A stretch of DNA of 60,655 bases, filler included, from Basidiobolus ranarum (lineage: Eukaryota), in the NCBI GenBank assembly GCA_040143965.1. It is 16 parts of 16 records of this genome, joined end to end, with 100 filler letters (N's around TTAATTAATTAA, not from the genome) between each part and the next. Parts side by side here need not be neighbours in the genome. Positions count along the whole stretch, not along the records: positions 30,454 to 34,151 come from JASJQH010009205.1; 15 more parts are not named here. One strand, given 5' to 3'. The notes below the pieces were generated by a model. That model did no database searches and had not been told where the DNA came from. It was given only the letters and a program-made list of their open reading frames with translations. Positions 26,699 to 51,689 of the stretch are shown piece by piece. The position numbers and the translations under genes are program-made. The first letter of the stretch is position 1. Each line of letters starts with the position of its first letter.

Positions 26699-29402
26699 CT
26701 GATCAAGTAGTAAAGTAAAAATTTCAGAGTGTTTTGGTAAATTCGCCGACCTTCTCCAATTGCACGAAGAATGGTGGCAAAGTTATCGTCCGTTAAAATA
26801 ATGTCTGAAGCTTGCTTGGCAACATCCGATCCATTCATTCCCATAGCAATACCAACATCGGCTATTTTGAGCGATGGAGAGTCTATACAGTTTCAATTGT
26901 TAAAGTTAAAACTGGATGATAGCCAAATTTCACAGAAAGAGGAATACAAACCGTTAACACCATCGCCTGTCATAGCAACAACCAAATTTCTCCGATGCAA
27001 GGCCTTGATCATCTTGACTTTTGTATCTGGTGAACATCTTGCAATAACAAGTGGTAGCTGCTCTAAACTATCCAACTCTTTTTCTGACATAGCATCAAAA
27101 CAAGGACCACTGATTACGACATTTTGTAGCTTCGATTCTGTTGTGTTGGAGCTGAGAATGCCCACCTCCTTTGCAATAGCCGTTGCCGTCTCTTCATGAT
27201 CTCCAGTGAGCATATGTACCTTGATTCCAGCACCGTAGGCCTCTTCTACTGCACGGCGACTCTCGGGTCTTGGAGGATCTGATTAAAGTCAACAACATAA
27301 ATTCGTCAGTTTACCTTATATTGAGCTGTGCATACAAAAATGTAATCAAATACCGTAAATGCCAACCAATCCAAGGAAGGTGAGATCCTTTTCTAACGCT
27401 TCTCGACTGGTATTCTGAGCTTCCTCTCTGGTGATATCAAGAGATTTATATGCCAATGTCAAGACACGCTAACATGTAGAATAGCGTTAGAGCAAACATC
27501 AAAATCGAGATCGAATGGCTGTGTTCTTACTAAACCCTTTGAAGCTAAGGCATCTACGCGAACCAATATTTCTTTTCCATCCTCAACATTATGACATAGG
27601 GATAGAATTCTCTCTGTTGCCCCTTTCGTAAACATAAGTAAATTTTCAGAATCCTTTAGTTGATAGATGACGGACATTCTTTTAATTGATGAGTCAAATT
27701 GAAACTCAGATAGGAGTTCATAATTCATCTCCTCCAAATCAGGCTTTCCCATTCCAAATTTATGAGCAAACACTTGAAGAGCGACTTCAGTTGGATTACC
27801 ATTGGCAATCCATTCTTTCGATTGATTCAAGCGAATGCTTGCCATATTGCAAAGAGCGGCGCATCTGATGAATCTCTCCAGGTCTTTTGATACATTGGAC
27901 TTGTTAATAGGTTCTGCACCACTGTTGTCTAACTCAGTTTCCAATCCTAGATGATATACCTCGCCTTCTGGGTCAATCCCTTTAGAGGTTACAGAGTAGT
28001 AACCGTCCTTAAAGATCCAGAATTTAACCAGCACCATTTGTGCTTGGGTCAGAGTACCCGTCTTCACGAAGTGGAAATCATTATAAAAAAGAATGAGTCA
28101 AGATATTACTAGTACAAACTAATCAAGAGATACGAGAACAAACCTTATCTGAACAAATGTTTGTTACGCTGCCCAATGTTTCCAAAGAGTTTAATTTTCG
28201 TACAATAGCCCTTTGCTTAATCATCTCCTTACCACCAATGACAAAGGTAACGGTGACAACTGTAGTCAATCCCGCTGGAACTGCACATAAACCGGCGGTC
28301 ATTGCGTACATTCCGATATCATAGCTGGTAGGAGCATTGTATGTCAGCTAATTAGTAGTAAAGTGAATGTAATTCAGAGGTACTTACGTAATTTTAAATT
28401 TGCTAATCCCTATAACAATGATAGCAACAACAGCGGCGACCACTAACAAAAATAGAGCCATATAATTCAGGCTGACAAGCAGTGTTAGAAAAAGAATATC
28501 GTATTTATTCGATGCTAAATAGACTATACCTTTTCTGCAAACGTGTCTGCCCACTACCTCCAGATTCAGAAATGGTTTTTGCTATTTTTCCAATCTCAGT
28601 ATTCATCCCTGTGCCAACAACTATTCCTTTGGCACGTCCTTTAGATGCTATGGTCGAAGAATAGGCCATATTAGTACGATCTCCTAAGGGAATGTCTTTT
28701 TCTTGAAGAGCGTCTAGCCTATAAGGGAAAATCAACTAGATTAGAGAGAATGCCACTTTTCATACATTAACAAATCAAATTCACCTTTTTAAAACATGCT
28801 CTGATTCACCAGTAAGAAGGGCTTCGTCAACTTCGAAATTTGAAACGTAAATCAGTCGAACATCGGCAGCTATCGAATCTCCTTCCTGAATGAGTAGAAG
28901 ATCCCCTGGAACCAACTCTCGGCTGTTTATCGTCAGCTCCTCACTGTCACGAAGTACGCGAGCAGTAGGTGAGGACATCCCGCGTAGTGCTTTCATCGTC
29001 TGTTCGGCACTATACACTTGTTGAAATCCCAGAGATATATTCAGGATAGTAATCGCAAGGACGAGAGTGGCAGAAATGTAATCTTTTTGCACATAGGACA
29101 CGATCTACAGGCAAATTTTAATTTAGCTAAAGCTGCAAAATGTATCGCGAGAAAAGGAAATGGTATGCTCTTACCGCTACTGCAAGAAGGATATAGTTAA
29201 CTGCATCTTTAAGTTGGTATGATAGAATGGTGTACCATTTAATTTCCCCAGCGCCACTCAGTTCGTTATAACCATATTGATTTAGCTTATCACTGACATC
29301 TGAGCCCTGTAATCCAGTCTCCTGGTCCGTGCGAAGTGCTTGTACTGCTGACTCTGGATCCAAAGAATGCCAAGGTAGATTTATTGCGTTGTTCTCCTCC
29401 AT
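26699..29402 (-). CDS. ENA1: ENA-type (P2D) Na+/K+ P-type ATPase, multi-exon, 3'-truncated
   Basis: [15 protein letters not shown] in TM4, ICSDK|TGTLTQ (split by an intron), [29 protein letters not shown] and MTGDGVN|DSPSLK. Confidence 0.9.
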
Positions 29403-30245
29403 GGCTATTTGATGTGTTGGCCTTTGAATAATCATTTTATCAATGTTCCGATGCTCTTTTATATTGGCATACATAGATCGGGAATCTGAAAATCACCAAG
29501 TCGACGTTGAAAACGGACAAACCTCTTTCACCACACTAATATATTTGCGGACACTTGTCAAATATAGATATTAGGCGATCAATATCCCACCACGTGATCA
29601 CGGTTATTCTATAGCCATGTTAAAGATTATTCAATTTCTTCATAACTGACGAGGAGTGGACGGAAGCAGACAACAGAATACAGTATAGAAAACATTAGAA
29701 GAGCCAGTGATAAGATGAGAATTAATTTTGCGTACATGATATGCGCTTGCAAAGGTGATCAGGATATACCGAATTTGTGATCTGGTTAGAACAACCTGGC
29801 CCCCAACCTGATTGTATATCGTAATTTCAATATCTGAGATAAGTCAATCACATTATAGGTATTTAAACATACATTTGTGAGACTTCATCTAGTGTATAAA
29901 GGGTTAGCAGTACACATAAAATTCAACCTGTTGTAATTGCTATTAACTGACTGTGGCAAGCCTTTGATATTTCTACCCCTTTTGCAAGTATACAGCTCCT
30001 ATCTTGACTAATTAAATCATAGCAAATCTTTAAATATGTAGAAATTAGAATCTTCTTGCTACTTGATGTACCTCCAATCCATGTGGAAGTGATCTCTTGG
30101 CCAAGTGTTGCAAGTTTAGCATAGTGGCCATAGTTGCTGAAGCTGGTTGCACTTTTGGTGGTGGTAGTACCTGCAAGTGCTTTTACAGCCTTGGCTGGGG
30201 ATACATCACAGGCATCTTGCCATTTGTTACTGGTGGCTATACTTA

Positions 30246-30353: not shown

Positions 30354-31547
30354 NNNNNNNNNNNNNNNNNNNNNNNNNNNNNNNNNNNNNNNNNNNNTTA
30401 ATTAATTAANNNNNNNNNNNNNNNNNNNNNNNNNNNNNNNNNNNNNNNNNNNNTCGTGATTGTTTTAAAGTGACGTCCCCTTAATGACACGGCGTGATGG
30501 GCAATAGAAAACCCATTGATGATGATCTTCACTCATTGGAATATAACATCATTTTGGTTCTCATCGCATAATGGGCCTAGATTTGATGGATTGATTTCCT
30601 TATTGACGGCTCTCCATCATCAAATACCTGTATGAGTTAGAGTCTGAGCAGTCAGACTCGTGTAGGCCACATTCTCATTACCTAAAGCTCCTTTAAAGGC
30701 TACAAATTACCACCAGCTTGATTTTTTGCGGGCTGTACCATTTGCGCTATTAGTATTGTAGAGGATTTGAACAGCCCCATCACCCCCACAAAGGTATATT
30801 TCATGCCAGTAGCCAATTTTTGGCTTACTTTAGCCAAATTTGTAATAATAATATGTTGTTAGAGGCTTGGTATGTAACAGAGATGTTTTTGTAGCTTCAA
30901 ATATCCCTTTTTGACTAAAAAACGACATCACCTAGACCACGTACTTATGGACCTGTTGCGTCTTTAGTGTGTCGTTCGACGTACTTTATCCTCAGAAAGG
31001 TTCAAAGAAATTATTGAGATGGAAAATTGGGTGTATAGCGTATAGGTCATTTATGATCAACAGGTAGCTTGCAATTCACCAGCTTTTGTATCGCTCAACC
31101 AAATGAGCTTTTGTAACCAGCTCAGTCAGAACGAATTGCATAACATGAAGTAATTTTGCTACCAACAGAAGCTCAAGTATGTAACATCACGTGATACTTT
31201 GTTTTCAATCAACGAAGTCATTTTATTGCGCATATTGATTATAACTGCAGAATACATATCAATCTGATAATGCAACACAAATAGTCTAGAATTTGATTGG
31301 TAGTCTGAACATCATGATTTAATAAACGAAGATTGATACCTGCGTGTTATCTTAACCAAGTCTTATGCGGAATCCACTTTTAATCTACAGAATGATGGAA
31401 GAGGTCATCCTAAAGAGTCAAATTTGTTCAATTTATTTTATCTATTCATTGGTTACGATATTTTGGTAATTACTGTGATTAATTCAAGCTTATACTTCAA
31501 CAGCTCAGTCTAATACATACTGTTGTCCCTGTCATTCAAATATAAAC

Positions 31548-33165
31548 ATGAGTCAAGCGAAACACTCTCGTGTAGTATTTGGTGGGTTGCATTTCATTAG
31601 TAAAAATACTTTTAGTTTAGAATTCTCATAAACGTTACCTTATTCAGTGGGCGGCATTCCGTACGATCTGACCGAAGAACAATTGATTGACATCTTTAAA
31701 GAAGTTGGACCGGTAGTTTCCTTTCGGTAAGTCGATGGCCATTTTAACTTTTATCAATGAAGACTTTGAAATTGATGAGTTTGGATATTTAGTTTGGTCT
31801 TTGATCGAGAGACTGGTAAACCTAAAGGATACGGATTCTGCGAATTTCACGACGCAGTAACTGCTAGTAGTGCCGTTAGAAATCATAGGTCTTTACAAAT
31901 CCTGATCGATCTCCTTTTTATTTTTCTTCATGTCGTATGGATTTTGTTTGATCGAGAACTCCAGCAACCACTCTGGGCATGAACGGGTTGTGTTTGGTAG
32001 TTACGGAATAACGGAGGAACTAATGCATTCCTACCAATTTTTTTCTTGTATTTTTTTTTCAATACTGAACAACTATGAAGTTGGAGGTCGTCAGCTTCGC
32101 GTGAATCATGCTGAAAGTGACTCTACTAATAACGCGGAAGGATATCGTATAAGTGAAGGAGATGTTTTGTCGAGCGGAAGTGATGTAAGGATATCGGAAT
32201 TTCTTGTTTATCACTAGCACAATCTAATTAGAGTTTGTTGCTTTTATCAAATAGCCTCGATTATCTGGACAAGCAGGTGGGAGACCCCAGGTTTCCACAT
32301 CCACTGAGTCTGTTTCCAATGCTATATCATCTATGAACACGAATCAATTAGCTGAACTTATGGTCCAGATGAAGGTGATACATACTTTAGCTATATCTCT
32401 TTGGTTACAACTGCTCAAATGGTTGTTTTTGTAGGCAATTGCGCAGCAAAGTCCCGAACAAGCTAGATCTGTTCTAACAACTAACCCTCAGTTGGCATAT
32501 GGCATTTTTCAGGCAATGCTCACCATGAATTTAGTTGACCACAAAATTTTGCAGGTATGTATACGATCGTATAGTTATGATGTATTAAGAATGTTTCTGA
32601 TATACTACTATCAGCGACTTCTAAATCGGTCACCAAATCAAACACAAGCCATCAACACACCTGTGGCGCCAGCCTCCAATTATTCAGGGCCACCTGAGTC
32701 GGTACCCAATGTACCCTTGCCTACACCTATGGCACAATCAATACCTCCAGCTCCAAGTGCTCCGATTAGTAGTGTCGATAATATTGGGGCCACCGCACCT
32801 CCAGCCATGAGTAAGAATCCGCCATTTTGCTTTTATTTTAGATATATTAACCCTTTGATTTACGCTGTCTGTAGATGATTCTCTCCAGGAGCAACAACGA
32901 GTATGCTTTTTGCTACCATATGACTTAATTACACTTGTACTTATATATGTATGCACCAATAGGTTCTTCTCATGCAGCTACTCAGTCTTACTCCACAACA
33001 AATCGACTCTTTACCACCTGACCAACGCCAACATATCTTGCAACTGGTAAGGGTTTTCAAGTTGATACATATATAGGGTAGATGTATCGTCGTTCTAACT
33101 AATTTTGCATTTGTTGTTCATCTATTTAGAAAGCGCAAATCATGATGGGCCAAGGTCAAACATAG
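31548..33165 (+). CDS. RNA15: Cleavage stimulation factor 64-kDa subunit / Rna15, 10 exons
   Basis: [20 protein letters not shown]...[16 protein letters not shown]...[17 protein letters not shown], hinge [24 protein letters not shown]-terminal [25 protein letters not shown]. Intron 3 (31885-32065) appears to be AT-AC. Confidence 0.93.
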
Positions 33166-34017
33166 GAGTTTATCATAGAGTTGCCATTTCTAAACGGTAA
33201 TTGATACTCCAGTTGAGCGCACCTCTCTTTACCCTGTAATTGTTCATTCATATTAGAATTGGATCATACTATGAGTAAATACTTGGCATTTCATCAAGTA
33301 TAGCCTCATTGATTCCACACTTTTCTTGTGAAAATAAATGGACATTTCTATCAATCCGAACAATATGTAATTATTCATTAATCTTGATTCACGAAGCTGA
33401 AGTGATCTGTTATCAACCACTGTATCTCTGTGTGAATATCAAGATTATTCTATCTGGAGTCATATACATAGATAGCCTATGCTTATTTCGACAGATTTAA
33501 TGCCATTGTGTAAAGATTCAAAGGGCTTGCAACCCATTGACCTTCTTTCTACATACGCAATATTACTCTGAGGCAAAGGAGATATACAAAAGCATCATTA
33601 GCCACTTCAGTTGCATAAGTATAAATATTTTCAATTGAATAAAACAATAAGTTCAGATCACATAATTCCTCTTTTTATCCCAAATCCTCACAACAGGAAA
33701 TGCATCCATTTCATCACCTCGTGCCATAAATAAGCTGATTACATCAAACTGTAATCCAATCTCTCATTGATTGTTTGATCATTTAATATTCTAAACTGCA
33801 TTTTACTTCCCATTTTATGGCTTGTATCTTAACTTGGAGTATCTCTGTATCTTCTACATTCATTGAGCTGAATACAGTCTAGATAGCTACAGTTATCAAT
33901 ACATATTATTGCCCAAGTATTTTGTCTGATCTTATGATGTAGTTTATATCCAAGTATCATCCTGCTATCAAGCTTCTTGTCCACATATTCAATAAAGTCC
34001 TAAGTAAGCCCTATTAG

Positions 34018-34151
34018 GATGAAACATATTGACATAAGATATCATTTTATACAAGAGAAAGTTCAAGACAAAGAAGTGAACTTTATTTATTGTAATACTG
34101 AAAACATGCTTGCAGATATACTAACAAAACCACTCAAAACTTCAAGCTTTG
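34018..34151 (+). mobile_element. Copia RNase H tail fragment
   Basis: KHIDIRYHFIQEKV...MLADILTKPL. Confidence 0.85.
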
Positions 34152-34252
34152 NNNNNNNNNNNNNNNNNNNNNNNNNNNNNNNNNNNNNNNNNNNNTTAAT
34201 TAATTAANNNNNNNNNNNNNNNNNNNNNNNNNNNNNNNNNNNNNNNNNNNNC

Positions 34253-34717
34253 TCTATCGAGGAGGTAACTATTGCTGCTTTCCTCAAAGCTGAGCATACT
34301 CAACACACGGAGCAGTTTATTGTCAATAGCTTGAGAAAAGCTGGGCAGTTGACAGTCTCCCTGGTAGCCGAAGTCGATGGACACCTTGTGGGTCACGTAG
34401 GATTCTCCCCCGTGAAGATTTCGAATTGTGACGAACCATGGTATGGCGTGGGACCAGTTTCCGTTTTACCTGAATGGCAGGGGAAAAGTATTGGCACCCG
34501 TCTCATGAAGCAAGGACTAGACCAGTTGCGTGAGCTGGGCGCTACTGGTTGTGTGGTGCTTGGGAATCCAAACTACTACCAGCGTTTTGGCTTCAAAGCA
34601 GAGATATGTTTGGTGCTCGAAGGCGTCCCACCAGAATACTTTCAGGCCGTTTGCTTCAAAGGGGATATACCCTCAGGTACTGTAACCTATCATGAAGCAT
34701 TTAATGCCCAAGCTTAG
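34253..34717 (+). CDS. GNAT N-acetyltransferase, YhbS-like and bacterial-type, 5'-truncated
   Basis: Intronless as far as visible: SIEEVTIAAF...HTEQFIVNSLRKAGQLTVSLVAE...GHVGFSPV...GPVSVLPEWQGKSIG...GCVVLGNPNYYQRFGF...YHEAF. Confidence 0.9.
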   Translation, partial: SIEEVTIAAFLKAEHTQHTEQFIVNSLRKAGQLTVSLVAEVDGHLVGHVGFSPVKISNCDEPWYGVGPVSVLPEWQGKSIGTRLMKQGLDQLRELGATGCVVLGNPNYYQRFGFKAEICLVLEGVPPEYFQAVCFKGDIPSGTVTYHEAFNAQA

Positions 34718-49412: not shown

Positions 49413-51689
49413 AAATAGCTGACTCTTGTTACCATTCACAATGAGAATAAGCTCTTGGATTTTGGCAAATTTCCGTAAAGAATTCAGCCAATATATCCCC
49501 AACTTGCAGTCAACAAATGTCCTACCACAAGTAGATATGTCATTGCAGGAATAGATTGCCCCATAGCTAAAGCAATAATACTGCATATCTTGATCTATCT
49601 CACCAAGAAGTCTGTCTTGCAGCTTTCCTAAAAATACCATCAGATTATCACATAAGCAAATTAGTCCAATTATAGTGGTACCAACTCTGTGTCCATGGAT
49701 TAGGCTTTGTTGCTGTTATTGTGCTCAAATAATGCAAAAACCCATGAGTACATTGAAAAGAGCCCTTTGTTGGCATGTTAATATATTCTGGAGTCTCTTT
49801 AACCCATTGCATTACATCCATCACTGATTTTGCTGAAACATTGTTAATCAGATTAGCATATGCTAATACTGACAATTTCACATGGAGCACCATTTCACTG
49901 CAGGTGTGCTCCATTGGGAACTCCCAGAATGTATAGCAAGGGCCTATAATCTCTAAGCATTATGAAAGATGCAGCAGGGAATGTATTGAATACCAGCATA
50001 GATTCAGTATATCTTCTTTAAACCTGTAATAAAGTTTTTCATATCCAATTACAAAATCTTTGCACAGTCACTGTATATGCCTGAGATCTGCCAATGTGAG
50101 TTGATGCCATAACAATTTATTAACAATACCAACAAACAACTCCCAAAGTTGCCAATACTTATCAGGCAGAAATCCTTTGACAATTCCACTTGAGTATATA
50201 CAAATCCAATACTTCCAGTCTTTGCATTTGAATAAACACCTAGATGAGTGGATATTAATGGGAGTCCTGGTAAAATACGATGGTATCTTGACATTTTCAA
50301 GCATTTTCCCAATTGATTCAAACTTTGATCCTATCTCAAATGGCTCATTCATGTTGAATTTTTCACTATATAGCTGAGTAAGTAGTATTGGAATGTTATT
50401 GAATACCAAGTGCATAGTGCCTAATGGGAAGCTCTGGCTCCAGCTGATCCCCTTTAGCAATACAATCTTAGGCTTACAGCTAATACCAAGCTTGATGTTA
50501 GACTCACTATTTGGTGAATTAATATCAGTGATCATGTTGAAATCTGACCAGGCTCTTGATGGTGAAATCATGGAGTTTAGTGTTGTATTTGGATAGTACT
50601 AATGCATATGCCTGATTGAGTAAACTCCAATGATTTGAAAAATCTACAGCAAGATAGTGCATTGTGCCTGCAAACAACTCCAAGTTTATTGATGGCAGGA
50701 GTATCACCAATACCTACCATGATATTAGCTTTAACAAAATATTCACCCATCTGAACCCCATTGGATAACTGTTCAAATTCTGCAATCAAAGGCTCCAAGA
50801 AGCTATCTATAAGCACTGGTGATTTAGATACAGATATGATAGATAGTCAAAACTTTAAGATGGGGAATCAATGGTATGTAAGCCAAATATGAATGATATT
50901 TACCTGATTCAGTGATTGCCAATTGTATGCAAACAGTACATGACTTCAGGTTTTTCAGATCACTGGTCAAAGCCAAACAACCATTTGGACATGAAGGTAG
51001 TTTAATTACTGAAGGATTATAAGTCATACAAAAGACAAGTGTTTTGCACTTGTACCAGGTCTGTGGCAAGCAACAGTTGCCAATCAACTGTGGTAAAAGT
51101 GTAAGAAAACCAATCAACAACTGGTTGCTAAGATTGGATTGAACTCTCCACTCCTCAACAATCAAAGCTGCTTTCTTTACTGTAAGTGTTATGAGTGGAC
51201 TAATGTTTGCCAGTAGCAAATAGTCCTTAACAAAACTGTTGTCTTCTTCTTCAACTTCGGATATATTACCATTGGTACTGGAATAATCAAGGTCAACACC
51301 TAGCAGCAAGTCCTCAAAGTTGTCTGGACTTAATGGTTTGACCAAAGTTGCACTTTGACCTACATCATTCTGTTCATATAACTGTGGTAACTCCACAGTA
51401 TCTCAACTTTTGGAAGTGTTACCAAACTTTGAGGCAAACTACAGTCAGTGGACTCAATGGTCACAACTAAAGTTGATTTAGTATACTGATTACTATTGTT
51501 ATACACCAGGCTTTGTGCAGCTGGTGGCTTTGTACAGTGACTGTGCTTGGGGTCATTTTTTCTATGAAGCCTCCAGCTTTCATAGCACAGGAATTTGTGA
51601 CAATAATAGCAGGGCTTTTTTAAACATTGGTGTTGCAGCATGAGAAGGATATTATAGAAAAAAGAACACCTCCCACATAAGGGTGGCAT
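49413..51689 (-). mobile_element. CACTA/EnSpm (Tnp2-family) transposase, degenerate
   Basis: CPNGCLAL, GDTPAINKL...HNALSCCRF, GTMHLVFNN, FKCKDW and PCYTFWEFPME motifs in Tnp2 order. Confidence 0.85.

Follow-up and report, generated by a model that had tools for sequence, protein, structure and literature searches.

A non-canonical AT-AC intron, best filed as U2-type, splits the RRM of RNA15/CstF-64 in Basidiobolus ranarum

AT-AC II introns, that is, U2-type introns with AT-AC termini, have been known since the 1990s and are very rare (PMC1557818). In the part of the survey by Sheth et al. 2006 (PMC1557818) that deals with this class, 15 are counted in human, six in mouse and three in fly, with no case from worm or Arabidopsis, which gives a total of 24 among the 608,562 U2-type introns of the five species. 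According to the same section, these introns are conserved among paralogous sodium-channel genes. It also relates that, in U2 introns of both yeast and human, a change of the first G to A is rescued when the last G is changed to C, "although less efficiently".

Intron 3 of the RNA15/CstF-64 gene of Basidiobolus ranarum resembles the AT-AC II introns described there, such as those of human SCN4A and SCN5A and of human and fly TAF2, in several respects. It has the same AT-AC ends on an otherwise U2-type donor, it has the same pyrimidine tract and is devoid of U12 motifs, and it lies in the same setting, a conserved housekeeping gene in which the intron is probably common to paralogs. By contrast, it comes from an early-diverging fungus, whereas the passages of PMC1557818 on this class have just hypothesised cases in xylanase genes of filamentous fungi. 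Its donor also has G at +4, with C at -1, and its U2 dependence is one that we infer from sequence.

Two other systems can be set beside it. With U12-type AT-AC introns, intron 3 shares the termini, a non-zero phase and a host genus rich in minor introns, but it has neither an RTATCCTT donor nor TCCTTRAY near its 3′ end, and it contains long U runs. With the feedback intron 3 of human CstF-77, as characterised in the relevant part of Luo et al. 2013 (PMC3708835), it shares a weak donor, a place in the same 3′-end processing complex and the rank of largest intron of its own gene. Nevertheless, it measures 181 nt and not tens of kilobases, belongs to a different subunit and differs in that no poly(A) signal was found in it among 16 hexamer variants.

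The window, by which we mean the whole stretch of DNA that was analysed (60,655 nucleotides, filler included), consists of 16 contigs of about 3.7 kb each in descending order of length, joined by 15 spacers of the form N44-TTAATTAATTAA-N44 that fall within 3713-56979. Since the contigs are joined by spacers, gene order across these is meaningless, and the apparent neighbours of the gene are not its neighbours. The contig of interest lies between the spacers at 30354-30453 and 34152-34251. Other contigs hold an intron-less GNAT acetyltransferase ORF (34253-34717, + strand; Acetyltransf_1, 4e-13) and several exons of a P-type cation ATPase (26893-29492, - strand; Cation_ATPase, 3e-24). The gene itself is laid out as follows:

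30454-34151, no strand: contig carrying the gene (JASJQH010009205.1), 3698 bases, with spacers at both sides
31548-33165, + strand: RNA15/CstF-64 coding region, 10 exons, 301 aa, in a model built from sequence
31548-31581, 31648-31726, 31793-31884, 32066-32184 and 32255-32374, + strand: exons 1-5
32435-32554, 32615-32810, 32875-32900, 32963-33046 and 33130-33165, + strand: exons 6-10
31793-31884, + strand: exon 3, which covers RNP1 and helix 2 in the RRM and ends with AVRN and the first base of the Leu-69 codon
32066-32184, + strand: exon 4, encoding strand beta-4 of the RRM and a linker and starting TG AAC AAC

The 301-aa product is, by its predicted domains, a member of the CstF-64/Rna15 family, as the N-terminal RRM, the CSTF2 hinge and the conserved C-terminal helix bundle are all present. 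In Pfam, it matches the complete RRM_1 profile (1-70 of 70; 1.3e-23), CSTF2_hinge (1.7e-23) and CSTF_C (6.9e-10), and it has 1580 homologues at E<=1e-10. Identity of its RRM to those of chytrids and Mucoromycota reaches up to 84%. Across 135 homologues, 36 RRM columns are at least 90% conserved; the B. ranarum protein departs from them at one, which compares with a mean of 1.03 departures per homologue and with at least one departure in 76 of the 135. Intact exons and domains, together with an RRM that is conserved as in other fungi, argue against a decaying copy. The sole departure falls at codon 14 (31587-31589), where N14 is changed to G, so that RNP2 reads VFVGGIPY at a position that is N in at least 90% of the 135 homologues.

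The intron that interrupts this RRM has the following parts:

31885-32065, + strand: intron 3, 181 nt, AT...AC termini, phase 1, whose excision yields the deposited 301-aa protein
31885-31890, + strand: 5′ splice site ATAGGT, a U2-type GTRRGT with G1 changed to A
32019-32024, + strand: candidate U2-type branch site ACTAAT, whose branch A (32023) is 42 nt ahead of the last base of the intron
32038-32059, + strand: pyrimidine tract, with T7 at 32038-32044 and T9 at 32051-32059
32064-32065, + strand: 3′ terminal AC, read from the sequence
31889-31964, + strand: alternative canonical GT...AG pair, 76 nt, open, which leaves 105 nt as a 35-aa in-frame insert in the RRM
31980-31982, + strand: TGA reached in the exon-3 frame when intron 3 is retained
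31930-31932, + strand: ATG inside intron 3 that starts the 278-aa isoform KAK9680576.1

Intron 3 begins with ATAGGT and ends with CAATAC, and its removal joins GTT AGA AAT C, which ends at 31884, to TG AAC AAC, which starts at 32066. Because C31884 and C32065 are the same base, an intron shifted by one position (31884-32064, CA...TA) would yield an identical mRNA; of these two, AT-AC and not CA...TA is the recognised terminal pair. The eight remaining introns of the gene are all GT-AG and 60-83 nt long, so that intron 3 is 2.2 times as long as the longest of them. In addition, canonical solutions were enumerated with donors within 31800-32059, acceptors up to 32183 and the full coding sequence required to stay open. 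This gave 55 GT/GC-AG pairs, each of which deletes or inserts RRM residues, and none of the 55 restores the conserved AVRN/LNNYE join. That excision of these 181 nt does restore it had been proposed by the first-pass annotation, and the model spliced in this way is the deposited 301-aa KAK9680575.1. What that annotation stated as fact on the remaining introns (GT-AG, below 90 nt), on ACTAAT and the long U tract before the AC, on the stop reached upon retention and on the open, in-frame GT(31889)-AG(31964) alternative with its 35-aa insert is equally borne out, coordinates included.

When a lineage-specific exon was used as a query, a single protein was retrieved at 100% identity, K7432_015887 of B. 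ranarum, for which two isoforms are deposited: KAK9680575.1 (301 aa) and KAK9680576.1 (278 aa). The AT-AC-spliced model equals the first of these letter for letter over its 301 aa and, therefore, the AT-AC junction is already part of the public annotation. The ORF of the second starts at 31930, reads through the intron to 32065 and continues into exon 4, and Pfam finds no RRM in its product. At the 3′ end of intron 3 this read-through isoform reads SILNN, which requires C at 32065 but comes from the same assembly. In effect, A31885 and C32065 are known from one assembly, and the deposited proteins derive from that same assembly. A literature search found no published account of how the annotation of B. 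ranarum AG-B5 was made, and one paper just names the assembly. Usually, an AT-AC intron and a second isoform enter a gene model via transcript or hint evidence alone, and intron-retaining isoforms are frequent in transcript-based fungal annotation.

The join is also supported by conservation. In an alignment of 17 sequences, in which 15 homologues were set beside the spliced model and the deposited read-through isoform, it lies inside a near-invariant SAVRNLN block in every sequence that fully covers the RRM, and in an alignment of 12 sequences the residues that flank the intron (R67, N68, L69 and N70) are invariant. The exact join, the lack of any canonical alternative among the 55, the deposited isoform and the near-invariant block together make the finding more than chance. 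Within the one assembly on which it rests, the reading of 31885-32065 as a real non-canonical AT-AC intron that splits the RRM of RNA15/CstF-64 can be taken as confirmed.

There is some information about the same position in relatives. In the Basidiobolus meristosporus ortholog (ORY02712.1), the join is contiguous at the protein level, as it is in the remaining aligned homologues that carry an RRM. B. ranarum itself has a paralog, K7432_007526, whose deposited model (260 aa) is without residues 66-108 of the 301-aa protein, exactly V66, R67 and N68 plus all of exon 4; its match to RRM_1 goes no further than profile position 55 of 70. The same skip is available in the gene of the window, where, judging from exon lengths, splicing from the GT in the codon of Val-66 (31875) to the acceptor of exon 5 would be in frame. 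A gene finder limited to canonical sites would skip in this way if intron 3 of the paralog were non-canonical and, thus, there are hints that the model of K7432_007526 was annotated around the same non-canonical intron. The three Basidiobolus proteins group into a single clade with support of 100/99, inside which neither the internal order nor that of the duplication is resolved by the tree.

Beyond the genus, metagenome loci were scanned. Among the best 80 of 502 relatives, all 80 are uninterrupted across residues 62-75, and 53 of the 80 have a wholly uninterrupted RRM; however, of the two search patterns one runs across the junction, the ranking favours uninterrupted matches and none of the 80 is Basidiobolus, so the 80 of 80 says just that the position of intron 3 is not universal. 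In three of the metagenome loci (L037, L069 and L076), the RRM matches are split near residue 37/38, which is the position of intron 2 of the gene. Unlike that of intron 3, this position may be widely shared.

Intron 3 also shows some similarity to the gene that contains it. It is open in the exon-4 frame from 31906 to 32065, and this frame holds short peptides like RNP1 (YGFC) and RNP2 (RVVF..TEE) of the same RRM. In a test chosen post hoc, this similarity is weak at both levels: against its own RRM-coding sequence, the DNA score of the intron was reached by 18 of 1000 shuffles (cDNA) and by 89 of 1000, and the protein score against its own RRM was reached by 21 of 1000. These RRM-like peptides may be left over from an internal duplication or may have arisen by chance. 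Exon 3 (31800-31810) and intron 3 (31947-31957) also share an exact 11-mer, TTTGATCGAGA, in different reading frames.

As for the spliceosome that removes intron 3, its donor was judged against the eight other donors of the gene, GTGGGT, GTAAGT, GTAAGG, GTGATA, GTATGT, GTAAGA, GTATGC and GTAAGG. It shares T2, A3, G5 and T6 with donors of this set, in which A3 occurs in six of eight, G5 in seven and T6 in three. Apart from +1, ATAGGT matches a U2 donor, and a pyrimidine tract and a branch site are found upstream of the 3′ end, as in U2-type introns. CTRAY-type motifs are present in three of the eight other introns, where their distance to the 3′ end is 15-32 nt. In its treatment of the AT-AC II class, PMC1557818 assigns to it introns with AT-AC termini, a donor that fits U2 well except at +1 and a pyrimidine tract, and U2-type "AT-AC II" is where intron 3 is best filed. 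The anatomy of the intron, the exact recovery of a conserved RRM and the deposited product are what the analysis shows, and from them we infer which spliceosome acts on it and with what efficiency: it is probably a genuine spliceosomal intron with AT-AC termini, and its likeliest route of removal is the major (U2-dependent) spliceosome, that is, an AT-AC type II intron.

If so, U1 and U6 would read the otherwise ordinary donor (A)TAGGT, U2 would pair with ACTAAT, some 42 nt ahead of the 3′ end, and U2AF-type factors would be recruited by the long U tract. In the second catalytic step, an A1-C(last) pair would replace the usual G1-G(last) contact. Some features speak against this U2 reading. 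The G at +4 is found in just one of the eight other donors, the exon base at -1 is C, and the branch A, at 42 nt, is farther from the 3′ end than in the three other introns with such motifs. Furthermore, Basidiobolus has a working U12 spliceosome, of which AT-AC is a hallmark, and the junction rests on the deposited annotation, with A31885 and C32065 coming from one assembly.

It is unlikely, although in keeping with several traits of the locus, that intron 3 is instead a U12-dependent AT-AC intron that has diverged in its 5′ and branch motifs, or a hybrid usable by either spliceosome. Its 5′ end, ATAGGTCT, agrees with the U12 donor RTATCCTT at just four of eight positions and lacks the TCCTT core, and a pattern search found no RTATCCTT on the + strand within 31885-32065. 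No TCCTTRAY-like branch site occurs 8-35 nt from the 3′ end of the intron, where the best candidate, TCCTACCA, agrees at four of eight positions. The intron also has a long U tract, which is atypical of U12 introns. By contrast, the AT-AC termini would suit a U12 reading, and so would phase 1, given that minor introns avoid phase 0 in the account of PMC10639083. Likewise, the genus is unusually rich in minor introns, as the parts of PMC10639083 and PMC11347168 devoted to it describe; in B. meristosporus they make up 0.554% of introns (n=249), the densest set known in fungi according to the former (PMC10639083). Hybrid and minor-like intron classes have been described as well (PMC11347168).

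The window was also searched for true U12 introns elsewhere. RTATCCTT occurs 10 times in it, against 5.9 expected, and 10 was reached by 10 of 100 shuffles; of these sites, seven lie outside the gene, none with a convincing exon context. Only one of the seven, ATATCCTT at 51652 (- strand), passes a loose U12-type filter. The frames to either side of it are open, and a CCTTGAT-like site precedes an AG/AC, for an intron of 375-378 nt.

A different kind of explanation concerns function. The intron could be deliberately inefficient, with retention (a stop at 31980-31982, likely followed by nonsense-mediated decay) or an internal processing site feeding back on CstF-64 levels. Because the stop reached upon retention lies upstream of six further introns, decay would be the expected fate of the retained form. 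An intron-retaining isoform is annotated beside the spliced one, the intron is far longer than the rest of the set, a GU-rich stretch is found at 31983-32000, and the model of K7432_007526 hints that both copies retain the odd intron. To this can be added the reduced efficiency of A1/C-last introns in the yeast and human tests cited in PMC1557818, and the precedent of CstF-77, which, in the portion of PMC3708835 on this subject, autoregulates via an intron that has a weak donor and carries a poly(A) site.

Nevertheless, the intron itself carries little of what such a device might be expected to show, and we consider this role improbable. None of 16 poly(A) hexamer variants occurs within 31885-32065, which is weak evidence since fungal signals are loose. 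The T fraction of intron 3 is ordinary, at 0.40 versus 0.39-0.44 in the eight other introns, with four T runs of at least five (5, 5, 7 and 9) versus two across the 531 nt that the other introns add up to. Its predicted fold is no better than that of shuffled sequences (z +0.78; 156 of 200 shuffles at least as stable). At the gathering score, Rfam gives no match in the window or the gene, and a chance-level miRNA match (E 0.93) lies outside intron 3; thus, no snoRNA or other RNA explains its length. Searching the window for other copies of the intron returned just T-run matches and chance matches of 9-15 nt, so it is not a repeated element there.

Conservation of the AT-AC termini would, in turn, be expected without any function. 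The AT-AC state is probably a stable trap, because exit from it takes two simultaneous changes, and single-base exits should block splicing and hence be deleterious. It need not be an adaptive switch. We treat the feedback role as a hypothesis, as nothing found marks the intron as a regulatory device. Of the interpretation offered in the first-pass annotation, the description of a non-canonical AT-AC intron with a U2-like 5′ end, a branch site and a U tract that splits the RRM is upheld by the sequence and by the deposited 301-aa isoform, whereas the slow-intron feedback switch, the U tracts as Rna15 sites and the intronic poly(A) site find no backing in the hexamer, T-content, folding and Rfam results. 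A broader version, in which both Basidiobolus CstF-64 paralogs would share the position of a U2-type AT-AC intron in the RRM, either as a relic of U12-to-U2 conversion in the fungal lineage richest in minor introns or as a selected slow step, with retention then tuning the level of CstF-64 as RNA-binding subunit of the 3′-end machinery, seems quite improbable.

Finally, it is very improbable that intron 3 was once a GT-AG intron and has acquired errors or mutations at each end, with working CstF-64 then supplied by K7432_007526 or the mRNA mainly using GT(31889)-AG(31964). In favour of this, there is a second CstF-64 gene in the same genome, the assembly is fragmented into 3.7-kb contigs and the 76-nt alternative is of ordinary intron length and keeps the frame open. 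Against it, two specific changes are unlikely to arise as errors when together they make the only compensating pair known, the remaining exons and splice sites show no damage, the RRM has the conservation seen in other fungi, and the deposited 301-aa isoform is spliced at the AT-AC join. In addition, GTCTTT, the alternative donor, is a poor fit to the donors of the gene, and with the 35-aa insert the RRM would contain a hydrophobic stretch that the U tract encodes.

Intron 3 is a rare intron of a known class that is already implicit in GenBank, and few such fungal cases are on record. The regulatory idea would be of wider interest just if RNA data bear it out. For annotation, the locus is a trap: two of the three deposited B. 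ranarum models at the two loci lose the RRM, wholly in KAK9680576.1 and partly in K7432_007526, and consequently domain surveys of this genome under-count intact CstF-64. Few intron classes are as rare as U2-type AT-AC introns, with a few per animal genome and few reported in fungi. Intron 3 is a clean case in an essential gene for RNA processing and, as the genus keeps a rich minor-spliceosome system, it offers a handy test object for how AT-AC introns are divided between the two spliceosomes and for the conversion of U12 introns to U2 introns.
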